A DNA stretch of 38,205 nt from a bacterium (GCA_027311385.1 DAICZA010000002.1:21327-59531); one strand, 5' to 3'; counted from the stretch's first letter, positions 2,881-11,843 are shown. Made by a program: numbers and translations. Notes: generated by a model from the sequence alone, not told the origin.

Positions 2881-3231
2881 TTACTCGATGCCGAGGCTCC
2901 TTTTGTAGATGTCTTTGATGAACTCAGTTTGTGATGCGAATGCTGTTTTTGATGACTCGTCCATTCGATCCCAGACCTTCTCCATCTGTTTTGCAAGTTC
3001 GGGATTTTGGCCGCGGGTCTGTTCGCGCTGAGTCTGGATGTTCGCAAGGCTTTGACGGTACGAGCGCAAAGCATTATCCAGGCTTTTTTGCATATCGGTC
3101 CTTGCGCGGGCCATGATGGCCTGACTGTGGACGGCATGCGCCGCGCGGAGCTTACGGATCTGTGCGTCTCCCCAGGCCGTGATCTCTTTCTCGGCCGCGG
3201 CGACTAATTCATCAATAGTGGGATTGGTCAT
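2881..3231 (-). CDS. hypothetical alpha-helical/coiled-coil protein (116 aa)
   Basis: Start re-assigned to MTNPT at 3231, which has a GAGGAG SD; ends near the 2833-2866 terminator. Confidence 0.7.
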   Translation of the reverse strand: MTNPTIDELVAAAEKEITAWGDAQIRKLRAAHAVHSQAIMARARTDMQKSLDNALRSYRQSLANIQTQREQTRGQNPELAKQMEKVWDRMDESSKTAFASQTEFIKDIYKRSLGIE

Positions 3232-3343
3232 GTGGCACTCCTCGTTGGTGGCGGATTGACAGGGTACTCCACGATTACATATCCCATATTTTATAGATAG
3301 AATCAATCGCATCGGAATGTAGTGCATTTGCACACCCTGCATA

Positions 3344-3371
3344 TTGACGGCGCTTTCAGGCGCGGTACCAT
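3344..3371 (+). promoter_or_regulatory. sigma70 promoter
   Basis: TTGACG-16 nt-TACCAT. Confidence 0.6.
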
Positions 3372-3377
3372 AGTTCC

Positions 3378-3505
3378 ATGCAGCGTCGACAGAATCTTCT
3401 CGGCCTCCTCCTTACCACCAACGGTGGAGGGTTCGGCCGTGTCTAGATTCTAAAAGAAACCAGATACAACCGAGAGCCTCCACCAGGAGGCTCTCGGTTC
3501 GTTTT
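3378..3505 (+). promoter_or_regulatory. candidate Leu-responsive transcription attenuator (leader peptide 3378-3446 plus terminator 3468-3505)
   Basis: Leader MQRRQNLLGLLLTTNGGGFGRV*; terminator aaccgagagcctcc-acca-ggaggctctcggtt-cgtttt; alternative pairings are available. Confidence 0.6.
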
Positions 3506-3539
3506 GATCTTTCTGCAACCAAGCAAGTAAGGAGGAGTT

Positions 3540-3845
3540 ATGGCAAGCATGCTGTTTACGGAACCGCCCGATGGTCTGTCACTCGAGGAAGTTCACCAAG
3601 CAATCGCCGTCGCAACTGCGCGGTTGAACGGCGAACGGGCGAAGATGGACGTTGTCCTCTTTGCGCAGGTGTACGTCGGCCCGATTGTCGTTACCCCGGG
3701 ACGGGAGGTAACGTCCTTCATTGTGTCGTACTCGGACAAGGACGCTGACGCGCCGGTATCGGTAGACACGGCGCTCAAACGACTTATTGATTCCCGGAGG
3801 CGGGACCGGTGGTGGTACCCGCGCCGCGATTGCTATTGCGCATAA
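3540..3845 (+). CDS. hypothetical protein (101 aa)
   Basis: Strong AAGGAGGAG SD; followed by a terminator. Confidence 0.7.
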   Translation: MASMLFTEPPDGLSLEEVHQAIAVATARLNGERAKMDVVLFAQVYVGPIVVTPGREVTSFIVSYSDKDADAPVSVDTALKRLIDSRRRDRWWYPRRDCYCA

Positions 3846-3870
3846 CCCGTTACCAGCGGGGGAGTGCATT

Positions 3871-3917
3871 CGGCCGCCGTTCGCCCACAAGGCGAATCGG
3901 CGGCCGGTTTCTTGTTT
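3871..3917 (+). terminator. intrinsic terminator
   Basis: cggccgccgttcgcc...ggcgaatcggcggccg followed by gtttcttgttt. Confidence 0.7.
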
Positions 3918-3969
3918 GTCTTCTTATCTTGCGTTTCTGTCCTAGATTGGTGGTAGAATTGGAAGACGT

Positions 3970-4206
3970 ATGGATATCGAGAAACAAAAGAAGAATGCTC
4001 GGCAGGCAACTATTGTATGCATAGTATTCTTGGTTGTATCTGTGTATTTTGGTGTAAAGGTCTTGTATCCCGACCTCGGAAATGAACCCGCTCATTTGTT
4101 TGATCCTCTTTATAACCTGGTTGCTTTTATCTTGGCGGCCCCACTCACACTTTATTATGCGATCCTAGCAGTATTTAGATTTTCCAAGTTACAGGGACTG
4201 AAATAG
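3970..4206 (+). CDS. small two-TM membrane protein, AT-rich
   Basis: 78 aa with two hydrophobic helices; TGg-TAGAAT -10 box 10 nt upstream. Confidence 0.7.
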   Translation: MDIEKQKKNARQATIVCIVFLVVSVYFGVKVLYPDLGNEPAHLFDPLYNLVAFILAAPLTLYYAILAVFRFSKLQGLK

Positions 4207-4389: not shown

Positions 4390-5595
<1,206 letters not shown>

Positions 5596-5603
5596 CTACT
5601 TGC

Positions 5604-6044
5604 ATGGCAACAGCGGCAAAACCGAAAGCAAAACCGGCGGCGAAGAAAGCCGCGGCAAAGGTCGCGGCGCCCGCGAAGCGCGCATCCGCGCCGCGGGCGA
5701 AAGCCCCGGCCAAGAAGGCCGCCACGGCCGCTCCGGCGGAGCACAAGCTCCGCATCCGCGTCCGCGCCTATGAGCACAAGATTCTGGACCTCTCGGTGAA
5801 GCAGATTATGGACACTGCCGCCCGCTTTGACGCCGTCGTCGTCGGCCCCGTGCCGCTCCCGACCGAAATCAAGCGCTGGACGGTGAACCGCTCTACGTTC
5901 GTCTACAAGGATGCGCGCGAGCAGTTTGAAATGCGCGTCCACAAGCGCCTCATTGATATCATGAACCCGTCCCCGAAGGTGATTGAGGCCCTCACGAACC
6001 TCAATTTACCCTCCGGTGTGACGATAGACGTCAAGATGGTCTAA
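5604..6044 (+). CDS. rpsJ: 30S ribosomal protein S10 with an N-terminal Ala/Lys/Pro-rich extension
   Basis: LRIRVRAYEH, GPVPLPT, REQFEMRVHKRLIDI. Confidence 0.97.
   Translation: MATAAKPKAKPAAKKAAAKVAAPAKRASAPRAKAPAKKAATAAPAEHKLRIRVRAYEHKILDLSVKQIMDTAARFDAVVVGPVPLPTEIKRWTVNRSTFVYKDAREQFEMRVHKRLIDIMNPSPKVIEALTNLNLPSGVTIDVKMV
5984..6044 (+). repeat. rpsJ 3'-end direct repeat, copy 1 (in gene)
   Basis: 61 nt; 53/61 identical to 7657-7717. Confidence 0.95.
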
Positions 6045-6061: not shown

Positions 6062-6099
6062 AACAACACAGACGGTCCCGGTGACCGTCTGTGTTGTTT
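6062..6099. terminator. intrinsic terminator after rpsJ
   Basis: aacaacacagacggtc-ccggt-gaccgtctgtgttgtt, a 16-bp perfect stem. Confidence 0.8.
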
Positions 6100-6144
6100 A
6101 GTATGGGTGTGCGACGGTGTGCTACTGTAAAAGCACATCGAGGT

Positions 6145-7659
6145 ATGCAAGATGCGCTCAAAGACTTCGTATTGCAAGAACGAAAGAGAGGCGTTTCCGA
6201 CTCTGATATCACCCATGCTTTGCAAGGCGCGGGATGGCAGGTCGCTGACATCGAGATGGCGCTGGCGACACTCCCGAGTACCCCGGCGTCTACGTGGCGT
6301 ATGGGCGTATTGGCAATAGGGGGAATTGTAGCCATCGCGTTTTTGGCGACACTTATCTTTCTGATGTTTCGCGCGCCGTCCGCAACGTCAACTGGCGGCA
6401 CGGCGCGCACAGTCGTTGCACCGGTCGCTTCGGCGTCTCCGCAAGATGTCTCGCCTCCAGTATCTGTCGCGCAGAGCACGACCACGAGCCAATCGACGCC
6501 GACCGCCAACACATTCGCGCTTACGAGCATCTTTTTAAAAGATGATCCGACGGCGCAGCGCATTGCGACGGGCGCACAGAGTAGTGTCGATATCCGCACG
6601 TTTTCGTTGAAGATTGGAGACGCGACTGCTGTTGGTACCGATTCCTTCGCGTATCGTCTTGTTAGTGCGTTGCGTATGCTTGGATACGTTCCCGGCTCCG
6701 CAGGCGGGCAATATATGTCGGAATCATTACTGTTTCCTTTCGAGCGGGATAACAATCTCCCCGTATCAGATATGGTCAATGCGCAGGTTCTAAAAACGCT
6801 TGACGCCGAGCTTGCAGTCCGAGAGACCAAGGACGCACAGCTCTCCGCACAATTCCCGCTCGCGAAATATGTTACGGCACCACCGGTTGTTAACGAGCCG
6901 ACGGAGGAGCATGCCGCAGCGCTGTTCACGATTGCCTTCAAGGCATTGCCGTCGCAGCTGGTTGTGTGGAATGAGAAGAACTTCCAGACCTATCTCGCCA
7001 AACAGGTGACAGGGTCGTACGCAGGACTCGGCACGCCGAACTACCGCGTTTGCCTCGCGTTCTTGTACCCGGAGTTTGGAGACGCTTGTGCGGTCATACA
7101 TAAAAAAGTGTCCGGCTTCTGGGGAAGCGACTTTTCCATTGCCACCACGCTTCTGCACGAATATGCACATTACCTCGACAAGAACCTGTATGCTCCGGAG
7201 CAGGGGACGTCACTCGGTATCATAGACACGTCAGGGTTCTACGCCATTTCATACGATACGAGCAAGGGAACGGTCACCAGTAACGGGTGGACGGAATATC
7301 CCTTCCTCAGGCCGAACGATGTCGCAAACGAGTTTGTCTCAAGTTATGCTGAAGGGTGGGGCAATGACTCTATTCATACGGCGTATGAAGACTTCGCGGA
7401 ATCATTTGCCTTATACGTGACCGGCGGGCGGATTTTCCGTGAGCTCGCAAAGACCTCTCCGGTACTGAGCGAGAAGTACTTGTGGCTCAAAGAGCACGTC
7501 TTCGGTGGGCAGGAGTACGATACGGGAGACGTCGCGAGCATCGCATATCTCAAGGCCCACGCAACTGCATCCGGAGCGGATGCCGTAGCGACCAAGGCAT
7601 TCAATGTTATTGATTACGCTACACAACTTCCAGATTTTGACTGGAGTTACACGTTCTGA
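6145..7659 (+). CDS. membrane-anchored extracellular zinc metallopeptidase (HEXXH zincin); cargo between the rpsJ repeats
   Basis: Start at ATG 6145 (GAGG upstream). Short cytoplasmic N-domain, one TM helix, S/T/P linker, LLHEYAHYLD, FVSSYA...EDFAESFALY. Confidence 0.8.
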   Translation: MQDALKDFVLQERKRGVSDSDITHALQGAGWQVADIEMALATLPSTPASTWRMGVLAIGGIVAIAFLATLIFLMFRAPSATSTGGTARTVVAPVASASPQDVSPPVSVAQSTTTSQSTPTANTFALTSIFLKDDPTAQRIATGAQSSVDIRTFSLKIGDATAVGTDSFAYRLVSALRMLGYVPGSAGGQYMSESLLFPFERDNNLPVSDMVNAQVLKTLDAELAVRETKDAQLSAQFPLAKYVTAPPVVNEPTEEHAAALFTIAFKALPSQLVVWNEKNFQTYLAKQVTGSYAGLGTPNYRVCLAFLYPEFGDACAVIHKKVSGFWGSDFSIATTLLHEYAHYLDKNLYAPEQGTSLGIIDTSGFYAISYDTSKGTVTSNGWTEYPFLRPNDVANEFVSSYAEGWGNDSIHTAYEDFAESFALYVTGGRIFRELAKTSPVLSEKYLWLKEHVFGGQEYDTGDVASIAYLKAHATASGADAVATKAFNVIDYATQLPDFDWSYTF

Positions 7660-10594: not shown

Positions 10595-10635
10595 CCCCGT
10601 AGCCAACCGAGCGAAGCGAGGTTGTGGTACCGGGG
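10595..10635. repeat. hairpin repeat (CCCC.../GTGGT-NN-GGGG family) between the rplB repeats
   Basis: ccccgtagccaacc-gagcgaagcga-ggttgtggtaccgggg. Confidence 0.65.
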
Positions 10636-10637
10636 AG

Positions 10638-10697
10638 AAGTACTCAAACGTCTTCATCGTCTCCCGCCGCAAGGTCGGCAAAAAGAGGAAAGGATAA
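10638..10697 (+). repeat. rplB 3'-end repeat, copy 2 (orphan, host-like codons)
   Basis: Same 19-aa peptide; 14 of 19 codons plus the stop differ synonymously; shared core tactcaaacgt. Confidence 0.92.
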
Positions 10698-10734
10698 TTT
10701 TACAAAGCACCCAGTAGGCGATTCTGCTGAATCG

Positions 10735-10764
10735 AAAAGCTCCGCACATTCGTGCGGGGCTTTT
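10735..10764. terminator. intrinsic terminator
   Basis: aaaagctccgcac-attc-gtgcggggctttt. Confidence 0.75.
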
Positions 10765-10827
10765 GCTATAGTTGACTCTAGACGAAGAACTTTTTTGTCG
10801 AATTTCCACCAACCGGACAAGGAGAAG

Positions 10828-11049
10828 ATGATGAAGAACGCAGATAGCGGAGTACGACCTATTTCAGAGGAAATGAGACGGCGAATCGAAGCAGGTCTTC
10901 GCGATTTGAGCGATCCCAATTCAGTTACACGGAGACGTTATAACGCGGCCGCGGAGAAAGGGGTCAAGTTGCTCAAGCCACTTGAAGATGTCATCGCCAG
11001 GTCGGAATGTCTGACCGAGTCTGATTTAGACATCGTCATAAATGTATGA
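10828..11049 (+). CDS. hypothetical protein (about 73 aa)
   Basis: AAGGAG SD before MMKNAD; TGc-TATAGT upstream; terminator at 11056-11087. Confidence 0.65.
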   Translation: MMKNADSGVRPISEEMRRRIEAGLRDLSDPNSVTRRRYNAAAEKGVKLLKPLEDVIARSECLTESDLDIVINV

Positions 11050-11087: not shown

Positions 11088-11843
11088 TTATCTGTACTCC
11101 GGCTTCAGGATGTTCGCGAGTTCTGATGTTGGAATACGGAGCGTTTGCGGTCCGGCGGCATAGGGGGCGACCGCGTAGGGAGGGAAGAGAATGACGAGAT
11201 TTTGGTTATCAAAAAAGAAGTTTGCAAAATTCTTATCGTCGGGCGTCGTGCCGGGGTTGATGAAGGCCGCGTCGGCGCCTTGGCCGATGATAGCGGGGAG
11301 TTTTGCGCGCGCGAGCGACGAGAGCGTGCCGAGATAGTCCGCACCCGGCGCAAACAGGTCGGCGAGCGTGAGCGCCGCGCCGCTTGTCGTGTCAAAGGTG
11401 AAGGTCTTGAAGAATGTGTTGCCGTGCGCGCCGAGCGTGTCCTCGTAGACGGTGAAGATGTAGGAGACGGTGTGCGACGACGACGCGGTGAGGTACACGA
11501 TGTTGAGTGTCTCTTTGCGTCCGGCGCCGAGACCAATCTTCGCGGCGTCCTGCGGCGTGAGCGTAGCGAAATTGCCGTCAGACTTGAATTGCGCGATGGT
11601 GTCGGCGACGAAACGCTTCATCTCTGCCACGGCGACGGTGTTTTCGGCGGCGGCGAGCGGCGTGCTGGTCGCATAATTGGCGGCGATATCGTAGTAAGGT
11701 GCGTGTTCTACGTAGTGGTTCCCCGGCAGGGCGACGGTCGCTCCGGGTGCCTTCGCCGGCACCGGGCGCGTGGCGGCGTAGAGGACAATACCGATGAAAA
11801 TGACGAGTATGACGGCTATCCCAATGTAGGTATTTCTCTGCAT
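11088..11843 (-). CDS. membrane-anchored RsiV/PdaC-like (DUF3298-type) protein
   Basis: N-terminal TM; GAHGN, LTLADLF and F.PY.VAPYAAG motifs. Confidence 0.8.
   Translation of the reverse strand: MQRNTYIGIAVILVIFIGIVLYAATRPVPAKAPGATVALPGNHYVEHAPYYDIAANYATSTPLAAAENTVAVAEMKRFVADTIAQFKSDGNFATLTPQDAAKIGLGAGRKETLNIVYLTASSSHTVSYIFTVYEDTLGAHGNTFFKTFTFDTTSGAALTLADLFAPGADYLGTLSSLARAKLPAIIGQGADAAFINPGTTPDDKNFANFFFDNQNLVILFPPYAVAPYAAGPQTLRIPTSELANILKPEYR

Follow-up and report, generated by a model that had tools for sequence, protein, structure and literature searches.

A probable leucine-type leader-peptide attenuator, related to leuA leaders of Patescibacteria, upstream of a gene without an assigned family

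The leader-peptide attenuators that control the enterobacterial leu, trp, his, and ilv operons belong to textbook gene regulation. What, then, would an element of this kind be doing in front of a nonbiosynthetic gene, in a genome that appears to have lost leucine synthesis? This question is raised by a locus (positions 3344 to 3845) in a 38,205-nucleotide stretch of bacterial DNA (GCA_027311385.1 DAICZA010000002.1:21327-59531), which was analyzed at full length and is hereafter called the window. A first-pass annotation made from the sequence alone had described this locus as a classical leucine-type attenuator controlling a gene without a recognizable function. Our analyses make it quite probable that the element is a transcription attenuator of the ribosome-mediated, leader-peptide type that takes charged tRNA-Leu as its signal, that comes from a leuA leader, and that now stands before a gene for a 101-residue protein, which we name MAS after its invariant N-terminus.

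The cassette lies downstream of a divergent minus-strand open reading frame (ORF) and therefore needs a promoter of its own. A predicted sigma-70-type promoter (3344..3371, plus strand), matching the consensus at 9 of 12 positions in our scan, comprises (i) a -35 hexamer, TTGACG (3344-3349), and (ii) a -10 hexamer, TACCAT (3366-3371), separated by a 16-nucleotide spacer. As the first-pass annotation had it, an ATG at 3378, located 6 nucleotides past the -10 box, opens a leader ORF of 22 codons (3378..3446, plus strand; MQRRQNLLGLLLTTNGGGFGRV, then stop), in which five of six successive positions, namely codons 7, 8, 10, 11, and 12, specify leucine (CTT CTC, a GGC, then CTC CTC CTT; 3396-3401 and 3405-3413). 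Promoter geometry predicts a transcription start that coincides with this ATG or adjoins it, so that the leader mRNA is probably leaderless. When the best-scoring pair of sigma-70-like hexamers was sought without bias in 42 leader loci, the same arrangement emerged in 29 of them, namely TTGACx, 16-18 nucleotides, TAnnAT, and then 6-8 nucleotides to the in-frame ATG; most of the remaining loci, inspected by eye, lie just past the fusA terminator and carry a TGnTAnnAT extended -10 element at an equal distance. On the other side of the leader, the regulated gene (3540..3845, plus strand) is preceded by a strong Shine-Dalgarno sequence, aaggaggag (3527..3535, plus strand), which lies outside all of the helices described below, and the distance from the leader terminator to the start codon is only 35 nucleotides, leaving no room for a separate promoter.

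The leader RNA (3378-3510) folds with an energy of -59.3 kcal/mol, compared with -35.9 +/- 3.5 kcal/mol for shuffled sequences (z = -6.6; none of 200 shuffles was as good), and its segments can form three mutually exclusive helices. The minimum-energy fold contains the 1:2 hairpin, or anti-antiterminator (3391..3451, plus strand), which is made up of (i) an outer helix of 3391-3397 with 3445-3451 (AGAAUCU:AGAUUCU), within which the ORF lies from its Gln-Asn codons through its stop, and (ii) inner helices of 3401-3405 with 3435-3439, 3406-3411 with 3426-3431, and 3414-3416 with 3423-3425. In these inner helices, CGGCC/UCCUCC/ACC (3401-3416) pairs with GGU/GGAGGG/GGCCG (3423-3439), which is the pairing of the Leu-codon segment with a purine segment that had been predicted earlier. 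The antiterminator, or 2:3 helix, joins segment 2 (3423..3444, plus strand; GGUGGAGG-G-UUCGG-CC-GUGUCU), which runs from codon 16 through codon 22 into the stop codon, of which it takes the first base, to segment 3 (3462..3484, plus strand; AGAUAC-AA-CCGAG-AG-CCUCCACC), which from 3468 onward also provides the terminator with its left arm and loop. Its 8 + 5 + 6 pairs amount to -27.8 kcal/mol in the window. The 2:3 pairing envisaged by the first-pass annotation thus exists, but it is longer than had been described, extending over the terminator's entire left arm and the stop-codon region and not only over ggagggttcggccg. Finally, the intrinsic terminator (3468..3509, plus strand) has the 14-bp stem that had been assigned to it (3468-3481/3486-3499), with 9 G-C pairs, a 4-nucleotide ACCA loop, and an energy of -27.7 kcal/mol, and its stem is followed by CGTTTTGATC (tail listed as CGUUUUGAUC); it is the longest terminator in the leader family. 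The conserved CAC(C/U) of the terminator loop, which a plain terminator would leave unexplained, is accounted for by its pairing with GGUG of segment 2.

The antiterminator was examined in an alignment of 40 leaders (A1; two further leaders, cut by contig ends, were left out) over 22 column pairs, joining columns 46-67 with columns 101-125. Paired cells made up 86.6% of the total, compared with 38-48% when the partner strand was slid by 1-3 columns. Moreover, double-sided changes were found at 10 pairs and in 37 cells, against 4.4 and 9.4, respectively, in shuffled alignments, and neither value was reached in any of 500 shuffles. None of the covarying columns falls on a base that our search pattern had fixed. 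Furthermore, the antiterminator was the minimum-energy fold of the segment 2-to-3 stretch in all 40 sequences, and the mean energies across these leaders were -28.9 kcal/mol for the antiterminator segment, -23.4 kcal/mol for the terminator segment, and -19.0 kcal/mol for the 1:2 segment. A terminator with a G+C-rich stem of 9-14 bp is present in 40 of 40 loci, with many differing stem sequences, and at least 5 U residues occur within the 10 nucleotides next to the stem in 29 of the 40. The 1:2 hairpin is likewise conserved, with 79.5% of cells paired in the 40 sequences versus 37-48% in the slid controls. In the window and its closest relative (L047), lineage-specific paired changes, namely UUCGG with CCGAG and a stem longer by 2 bp, preserve both the antiterminator and the terminator.

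How widely is this leader distributed, and does it travel with the gene that it precedes here? The DNA of 3390-3513 has matches in 11 other genomes among the 201 of the genus, at 76-91% identity; in contrast, the 101-residue protein matched only 1 of 60 relatives. The leader thus appears, from these comparisons, to be conserved independently of the downstream gene; it was found in ∼14 of 222 genomes of the genus. A degenerate pattern built from the genus sequences hit 14 places in a one-genome-per-species collection and 32 places in metagenome contigs, which gave 41 distinct leader loci once duplicates were removed; the recurrence of promoter, ORF frame, Leu run, both alternative helices, and terminator in these loci exceeds chance by far. 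A match in candidate division GN15 (L027) fell inside a long ORF by chance and was excluded from all counts. Public records in which this element occurs bear titles of the type Patescibacteria, Paceibacterota, Parcubacteria, or Kaiserbacteria. The first-pass annotation had regarded loss of the leader ORF or of its Leu run as grounds for rejecting an attenuator; both are kept in all 41 loci, where an ATG-initiated ORF in the same frame and with the same stop encodes the consensus M..KQ.NLLGLLLTT.GGGF(A/S)CV. N-terminal lengths vary by whole codons, and four larger insertions also keep the frame. These four leaders carry in-frame insertions of 15-22 codons, of which two duplicate the Leu run (e.g. 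..LLGLPNHFASQNDGQAELLGLSLLTT..) and one adds an extra hairpin.

The pattern of change within the ORF points to the RNA as the object of selection. The hairpin-loop codon varies freely, encoding N, S, P, H, L, I, D, Y, F, T, or V; codons 19-21 change their amino acids together with the terminator arm; and, across the order, nothing of the peptide is kept but the Leu run, the peptide tail and stop position varying freely while the RNA motifs stay. We therefore read the constraint as acting, in all likelihood, on the RNA and not on the peptide.

The identity of the genes downstream of other copies supplies the link to leucine synthesis. In six loci, the leader is directly followed by a gene for 2-isopropylmalate synthase, with HMGL-like, HCS_D2/IPMS_D2, and LeuA_dimer matches at E ≤1e-73; in another (L070), leuA lies behind a divergent leader (TIGR00973, 622 bits, cut-off 599). 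A stand-alone LeuA allosteric domain follows the leader in two more loci, one of which has a threonine dehydratase C-terminal domain upstream. Within the genus, an HMGL-like gene occurs in 3 of the 201 genomes, and both of those with a full-length leuA (G002 and G008) have the leader. The copy in G008 is one of the six above (L014), and that in G002 is divergent (MHTRTAKLLDLLLTPTQGGGPARV, then stop) and was missed by the search pattern.

A sample of 401 genomes of the order was consistent with this, as it contained HMGL-like genes in 22 genomes, at 25 places, 18 of which have a Leu-rich leader ORF and a terminator upstream. The leaders found through leuA form the same 2:3 duplex (over 25 rows, the mean energy is -19.0 kcal/mol and the mean z -3.1; these rows include one opposite-strand artefact and one duplicate). 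At two of the 25 places, the same scaffold carries an Ile run instead of the Leu run, and five lack a leader (four with short forms of the gene, and L096). The Ile-run leader of L098 (2360-2470, minus strand; MQMSKKIIITAIIITSPNGGGLARV, then stop) precedes a citramalate synthase gene (TIGR00977, 667 bits, cut-off 450), as does the Ile-run second leader of L077 (minus strand), at the same place as L099. Second leaders with an Ile run also occur in L088 and L093 (both on the plus strand), where they precede ilvA; these ilvA matches are fragments cut by the locus end and are below the curated cut-offs, but they are the clear best matches. A match between regulatory codons and pathway is the classical hallmark of ribosome-mediated attenuation, and, because the exchange of a Leu run for an Ile run tracks the pathway, a peptide function or a small-RNA function is hard to reconcile with it. 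The assignment to the leu/ilv type is thus borne out by the leaders before leuA, by the Ile-run versions before the citramalate synthase gene and ilvA, and by the covarying 2:3 helix. By these homologies, the element in the window appears to descend from the leuA leader of this patescibacterial order and to have been re-used here. Ile-run leaders were also seen before uncharacterized genes (L091, plus strand, and L045), and several branched-chain amino acid clusters of the order hold two attenuators ∼2 kb apart.

In the genome of the window (638 kb in 47 contigs, completeness estimate 100%), searches for the HMGL-like, LeuA_dimer, Iso_dh, and Aconitase families gave no match. This accords with the earlier description of the lineage as poor in amino acid synthesis and suggests that leucine synthesis has been lost. 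The genome has a single copy of the leader as well as a RelA/SpoT homolog. What the leader now precedes is the MAS gene. The earlier view of an attenuator controlling a gene without a recognizable function stands as far as the gene is concerned, which encodes 101 residues, has a strong Shine-Dalgarno sequence, and has no Pfam or NCBIfam family; the element itself is not peculiar to that gene.

MAS proteins, which form a small, lineage-specific family of alpha/beta proteins, share an N-terminal motif (MAS...SF.VSYSD.D..AP...) and a C-terminal one (W[YF]..RDPY[CL]A), and their length and motifs are kept over 38 representatives (50% identity level) found among 1.8 billion protein cluster representatives. 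Within the genus, MAS occurs in 5 of 222 genomes, and, consistent with the expectation of Leu-rich leaders upstream of homologs, all five copies stand behind the leader. An AlphaFold2 model shows a beta-alpha-beta-beta-alpha two-layer fold with a predicted local distance difference test (pLDDT) score of 80.9. Neither Pfam nor NCBIfam holds a family for the 101-residue protein or for 29 MAS members, a word-indexed homolog search with the 101-residue protein returned only itself, and Foldseek gave no match to the model in the PDB at E ≤0.001. A wider fold comparison (VIA-align) gave a best Z of 6.6 (TON_0450), and generic two-layer alpha/beta folds (KH, Pcc1, aIF2-alpha C-terminal domain, and ACT-like) tied at Z 5-6. 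The ESM Atlas held no usable feature match for the MAS protein, its own model being poor (pLDDT 0.46). We also considered MAS as a degenerate LeuA regulatory domain or LeuA fragment and rejected this, as hhalign gave a probability of 0.2% against a LeuA_dimer alignment and 0.1% against full LeuA, and none of the 29 MAS members matched PF08502 (LeuA_dimer) or any other Pfam family.

Among the 41 leaders, the cargo is a MAS gene in 8 and a gene for a protein of 46-61 residues in 3. The latter proteins share only the C-terminal module of MAS (hhalign probability 86%), those of 46 residues matching only the C-terminal 30 residues of the family. Several leaders precede unrelated small ORFs, with a gene for a class-I glutamine amidotransferase/peptidase C26 further on; this gene, met in four distinct metagenome loci, is a second recurrent association of the leader other than leuA. 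Cassettes that lack leuA are mostly located in the fusA-tuf spacer. In the window, the cassette is closed by a second terminator-like hairpin (3872..3919, plus strand; GGCCGCCGUUCGCC-CACAA-GGCGAAUCGGCGGCC, then a T-run; its arms are also given as GGCCGCCGTTCGCC-CACAA-GGCGAATCGGCGGCC). With a strict pattern, this hairpin was found conserved, with compensatory changes in the inner stem, in 14 of the 42 leader loci, all 14 of which lack leuA.

How would the element work? The first transcribed base would be the A of the start codon at 3378 or one adjacent to it, and a ribosome would load on the leaderless 5′ end and follow the polymerase. With Leu-tRNA plentiful, this ribosome would reach the UAG at 3444 and either cover segment 2 or let the 1:2 hairpin re-form behind it; the terminator (3468-3499) and its U-tract would then form, and transcription would stop before the gene. 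With Leu-tRNA scarce, the ribosome would stall on the CUY codons (3396-3413) and mask segment 1. The freed segment 2 (3423-3444) would pair with the emerging 3462-3484 and sequester the left arm of the terminator before the right arm is made, and the polymerase would read through into the 101-residue gene. The MAS gene would, in this scheme, be expressed when the external supply of leucine fails, and its induction upon a fall in charged tRNA-Leu is the most economical function that we can propose. Like the first-pass annotation, we infer a sensor of starvation or translation stress.

Several observations weigh against this account. First, the leucine codons of the leader are the commonest of the genome and not rare ones (CTC 49% and CTT 19% of use). 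A tRNA-Leu(GAG) was not found among the 31 tRNAs, which says little in so fragmented an assembly. Second, the 1:2 hairpin is conserved, yet its covariation does not exceed that of shuffles, and part of its invariance stems from how the loci were found, as the search pattern fixed TTACCACC and RGTGGAG. Third, equilibrium favors the terminator fold even when segment 1 is masked (-38 to -43 kcal/mol; taken separately, the window's antiterminator has -27.8 and its terminator -28.3 kcal/mol). A purely thermodynamic switch was rejected for the window, since with segment 1 masked the terminator state is still better by ∼10 kcal/mol. If the element is a switch, it must therefore be a kinetic one, in which segment 3 would be caught while segment 4 has yet to be made, as is understood of classical attenuators. 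Fourth, no cognate biosynthetic gene lies downstream here, and none was found in the genome; because it is missing, we infer, rather than read off, the selective reason for keeping a leucine sensor. Fifth, ∼9 loci have an intact leader with no ORF of at least 45 codons before the second hairpin. In these cargo-less loci, the leader may have a role of its own, or the cassettes may be decaying. Six such cassettes contain a perfect extended Shine-Dalgarno-like stretch, AGGAGGTGAGA(T/A), just past the leader terminator, followed by ∼60-70 nucleotides without an ORF of at least 45 codons and then by the second hairpin.

A more far-reaching proposal, which we hold to be possible though rather unlikely, is that the ancestral leuA attenuator was exapted as a stand-alone sensor of host- or community-derived leucine. 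It would switch on a MAS protein that, during starvation, acts on translation or tRNA or in amino acid scavenging; the leader, an exchangeable cargo, and the second terminator would together form a modular leucine-starvation expression cassette, and the cargo-less copies would act through the released leader RNA.

One alternative to the attenuator would be an inert relic, that is, a leader left behind after the loss of leuA and now drifting, with the 101-residue gene expressed at a low level through a leaky terminator. Most of the genus has indeed lost both the leuA-type genes (kept in 3 of 201 genomes) and the leader (kept in ∼14 of 222), and the series of cargoes, from 101-111 residues through 46-61 residues to none, with the 46-residue proteins reduced to matching the C-terminal end of MAS, resembles one of decay. 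Drift, however, sits poorly with a window in which all parts are intact and the terminator is the longest of its family, with the paired changes by which the window and its closest relative preserve both competing helices, with the placement of all five MAS genes of the genus behind a leader, and with a MAS family that keeps its length and motifs over 38 representatives and has a confidently predicted fold. We accordingly regard the relic as improbable.

Much the same low probability attaches to a function in trans, in which the terminated leader RNA of ∼125 nucleotides or the hydrophobic 22-residue peptide would be the functional product and control in cis would be secondary. Such a product would suit the ∼9 loci that keep promoter, ORF, both helices, and terminator without an evident cargo, as well as the strongly conserved spacer GUGUCUAGAUUCUAAAAGAAACCAGAUAC, and it has a precedent in what is reported for rnTrpL/peTrpL of Sinorhizobium (PMC6614838, PMC7298713). 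The conservation at the ends of the spacer is nevertheless explained by the covarying GUGUCU:AGAUAC helix (UUGUCU:AGAUAA in one locus; GC or GU at columns 64/104), the residues of the peptide change whenever the RNA partner does, no trans target was found, though none was looked for, and a product of this kind would add to the attenuator instead of excluding it. Least likely is an independent small-protein gene, in which the leaderless ORF would encode a hydrophobic membrane peptide (e.g. type I toxin-like) with its own terminator and the 101-residue gene would be transcribed separately: the hydrophobic core LLGLLLTT, the conservation of the ORF in 41 loci, and the strong terminator directly 3′ of it would fit, but the 35 nucleotides before the gene hold no room for a promoter, the peptide tail and stop vary across the order whereas the RNA motifs persist, the codon in the loop is under no constraint, coding positions covary with a noncoding terminator arm, and Ile codons replace the Leu run precisely in those leaders that precede cimA or ilvA.

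The leader-peptide attenuator that we favor resembles its enterobacterial counterparts in (i) a short leader ORF with a run of cognate codons, (ii) mutually exclusive 2:3 and 3:4 helices together with a predicted, competing 1:2 helix, (iii) a terminator before the first structural gene, and (iv) codons that match the pathway (Leu with leuA, and Ile with cimA or ilvA). It differs from them in its apparently leaderless mRNA, its common codons, and a long antiterminator of 19 pairs that includes the stop codon; moreover, the regulated gene in the window is not biosynthetic, the link to a pathway being seen in homologous loci. Nor is there similarity in sequence: Rfam gave no match at the gathering score over the whole window, and at E ≤10 the region 3233-3960 gave 7 chance-level matches to unrelated families, none of them a leader or riboswitch family.

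Among elements outside the proteobacteria, a close parallel is the actinobacterial LEU element of leuA, in which, according to Seliverstov et al. (2005, PMC1262725), the Leu codon run pairs with leuA's Shine-Dalgarno box at a pseudoknot's base. Like that element and the leuS and ilvB leader peptides of the same source, the present leaders place a Leu-run ORF before leuA in a nonproteobacterial phylum, and Leu codons resembling CCUCC pair with a stretch of purines that resembles GGAGG. In contrast to the LEU element as presented there, the Leu run here pairs with the internal GGUGGAGG, there are a clear terminator and antiterminator, and the Shine-Dalgarno sequence of the gene is not involved. 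Leader peptides of trpE, leuA, and ilvB in C. glutamicum (PMC3890552) and leaderless polycysteine ORF attenuators of mycobacteria (bioRxiv 10.1101/834739) offer a further comparison. As in these actinobacterial leaderless ORFs, an ORF at the 5′ end of the transcript with amino acid-specific codon runs would control downstream genes; phylum, sequence, and (for the cysteine case) amino acid differ, and here the leaderless state is predicted from promoter geometry. Similarly, the reports cited above on rnTrpL/peTrpL indicate that products of attenuators may matter beyond their cognate operon, which is relevant to the cargo-less cassettes.

A full-text literature search returned no report of transcription attenuation in the Candidate Phyla Radiation, and the literature on attenuators and leader peptides had no mention of Patescibacteria among the matches listed. 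Judged by homology and comparative structure, the leaders appear to form a new family of the classical attenuator kind, exapted in an auxotroph, its unusual feature being the attachment to a nonbiosynthetic gene. This adds a well-supported regulatory RNA family to the Candidate Phyla Radiation, where almost nothing is known of gene regulation, and would imply coupled transcription and translation as well as leaderless initiation in these organisms. The exchange of Leu for Ile on one scaffold represents a natural experiment on the evolution of attenuator specificity. Further, the orphaned copy in the window would tie the MAS family to one defined signal, leucine starvation, giving experiments a first point of entry to this family and to the way in which an obligate auxotroph senses what its partners supply.

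The window covers the str/S10/spc ribosomal-protein region, in which the cassette lies inside an insertion of ∼2 kb between fusA (270-2417) and tuf (4390-5595), the latter followed by rpsJ (5604-6044). A tRNA scan of the window found none. Of the sequencing runs listed as containing the stretch, none is recorded as RNA; four are DNA runs, from two studies, and two of these may be where the DNA came from. The same fusA-tuf spacer contains the divergent ORF (2881-3232, minus strand), with only a weak FapA match below the cut-off (E 0.0017), and a hydrophobic ORF of 78 residues without a family (3970-4206, plus strand). Between the second hairpin and tuf, a stretch readable, in an implausible frame, as ...NASWRRSLA... 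recurs in six loci, which suggests a conserved nucleotide element in the promoter or 5′ region of tuf. The ribosomal-protein operons of the window are also interrupted by other genes, namely an ORF of 522 residues without a Pfam family between rpsJ and rplC (6091-7659) and, between rplB and rpsS, an uncharacterized ORF of 141 residues (10624-11049) and a DUF3298 protein gene (11088-11843, minus strand).

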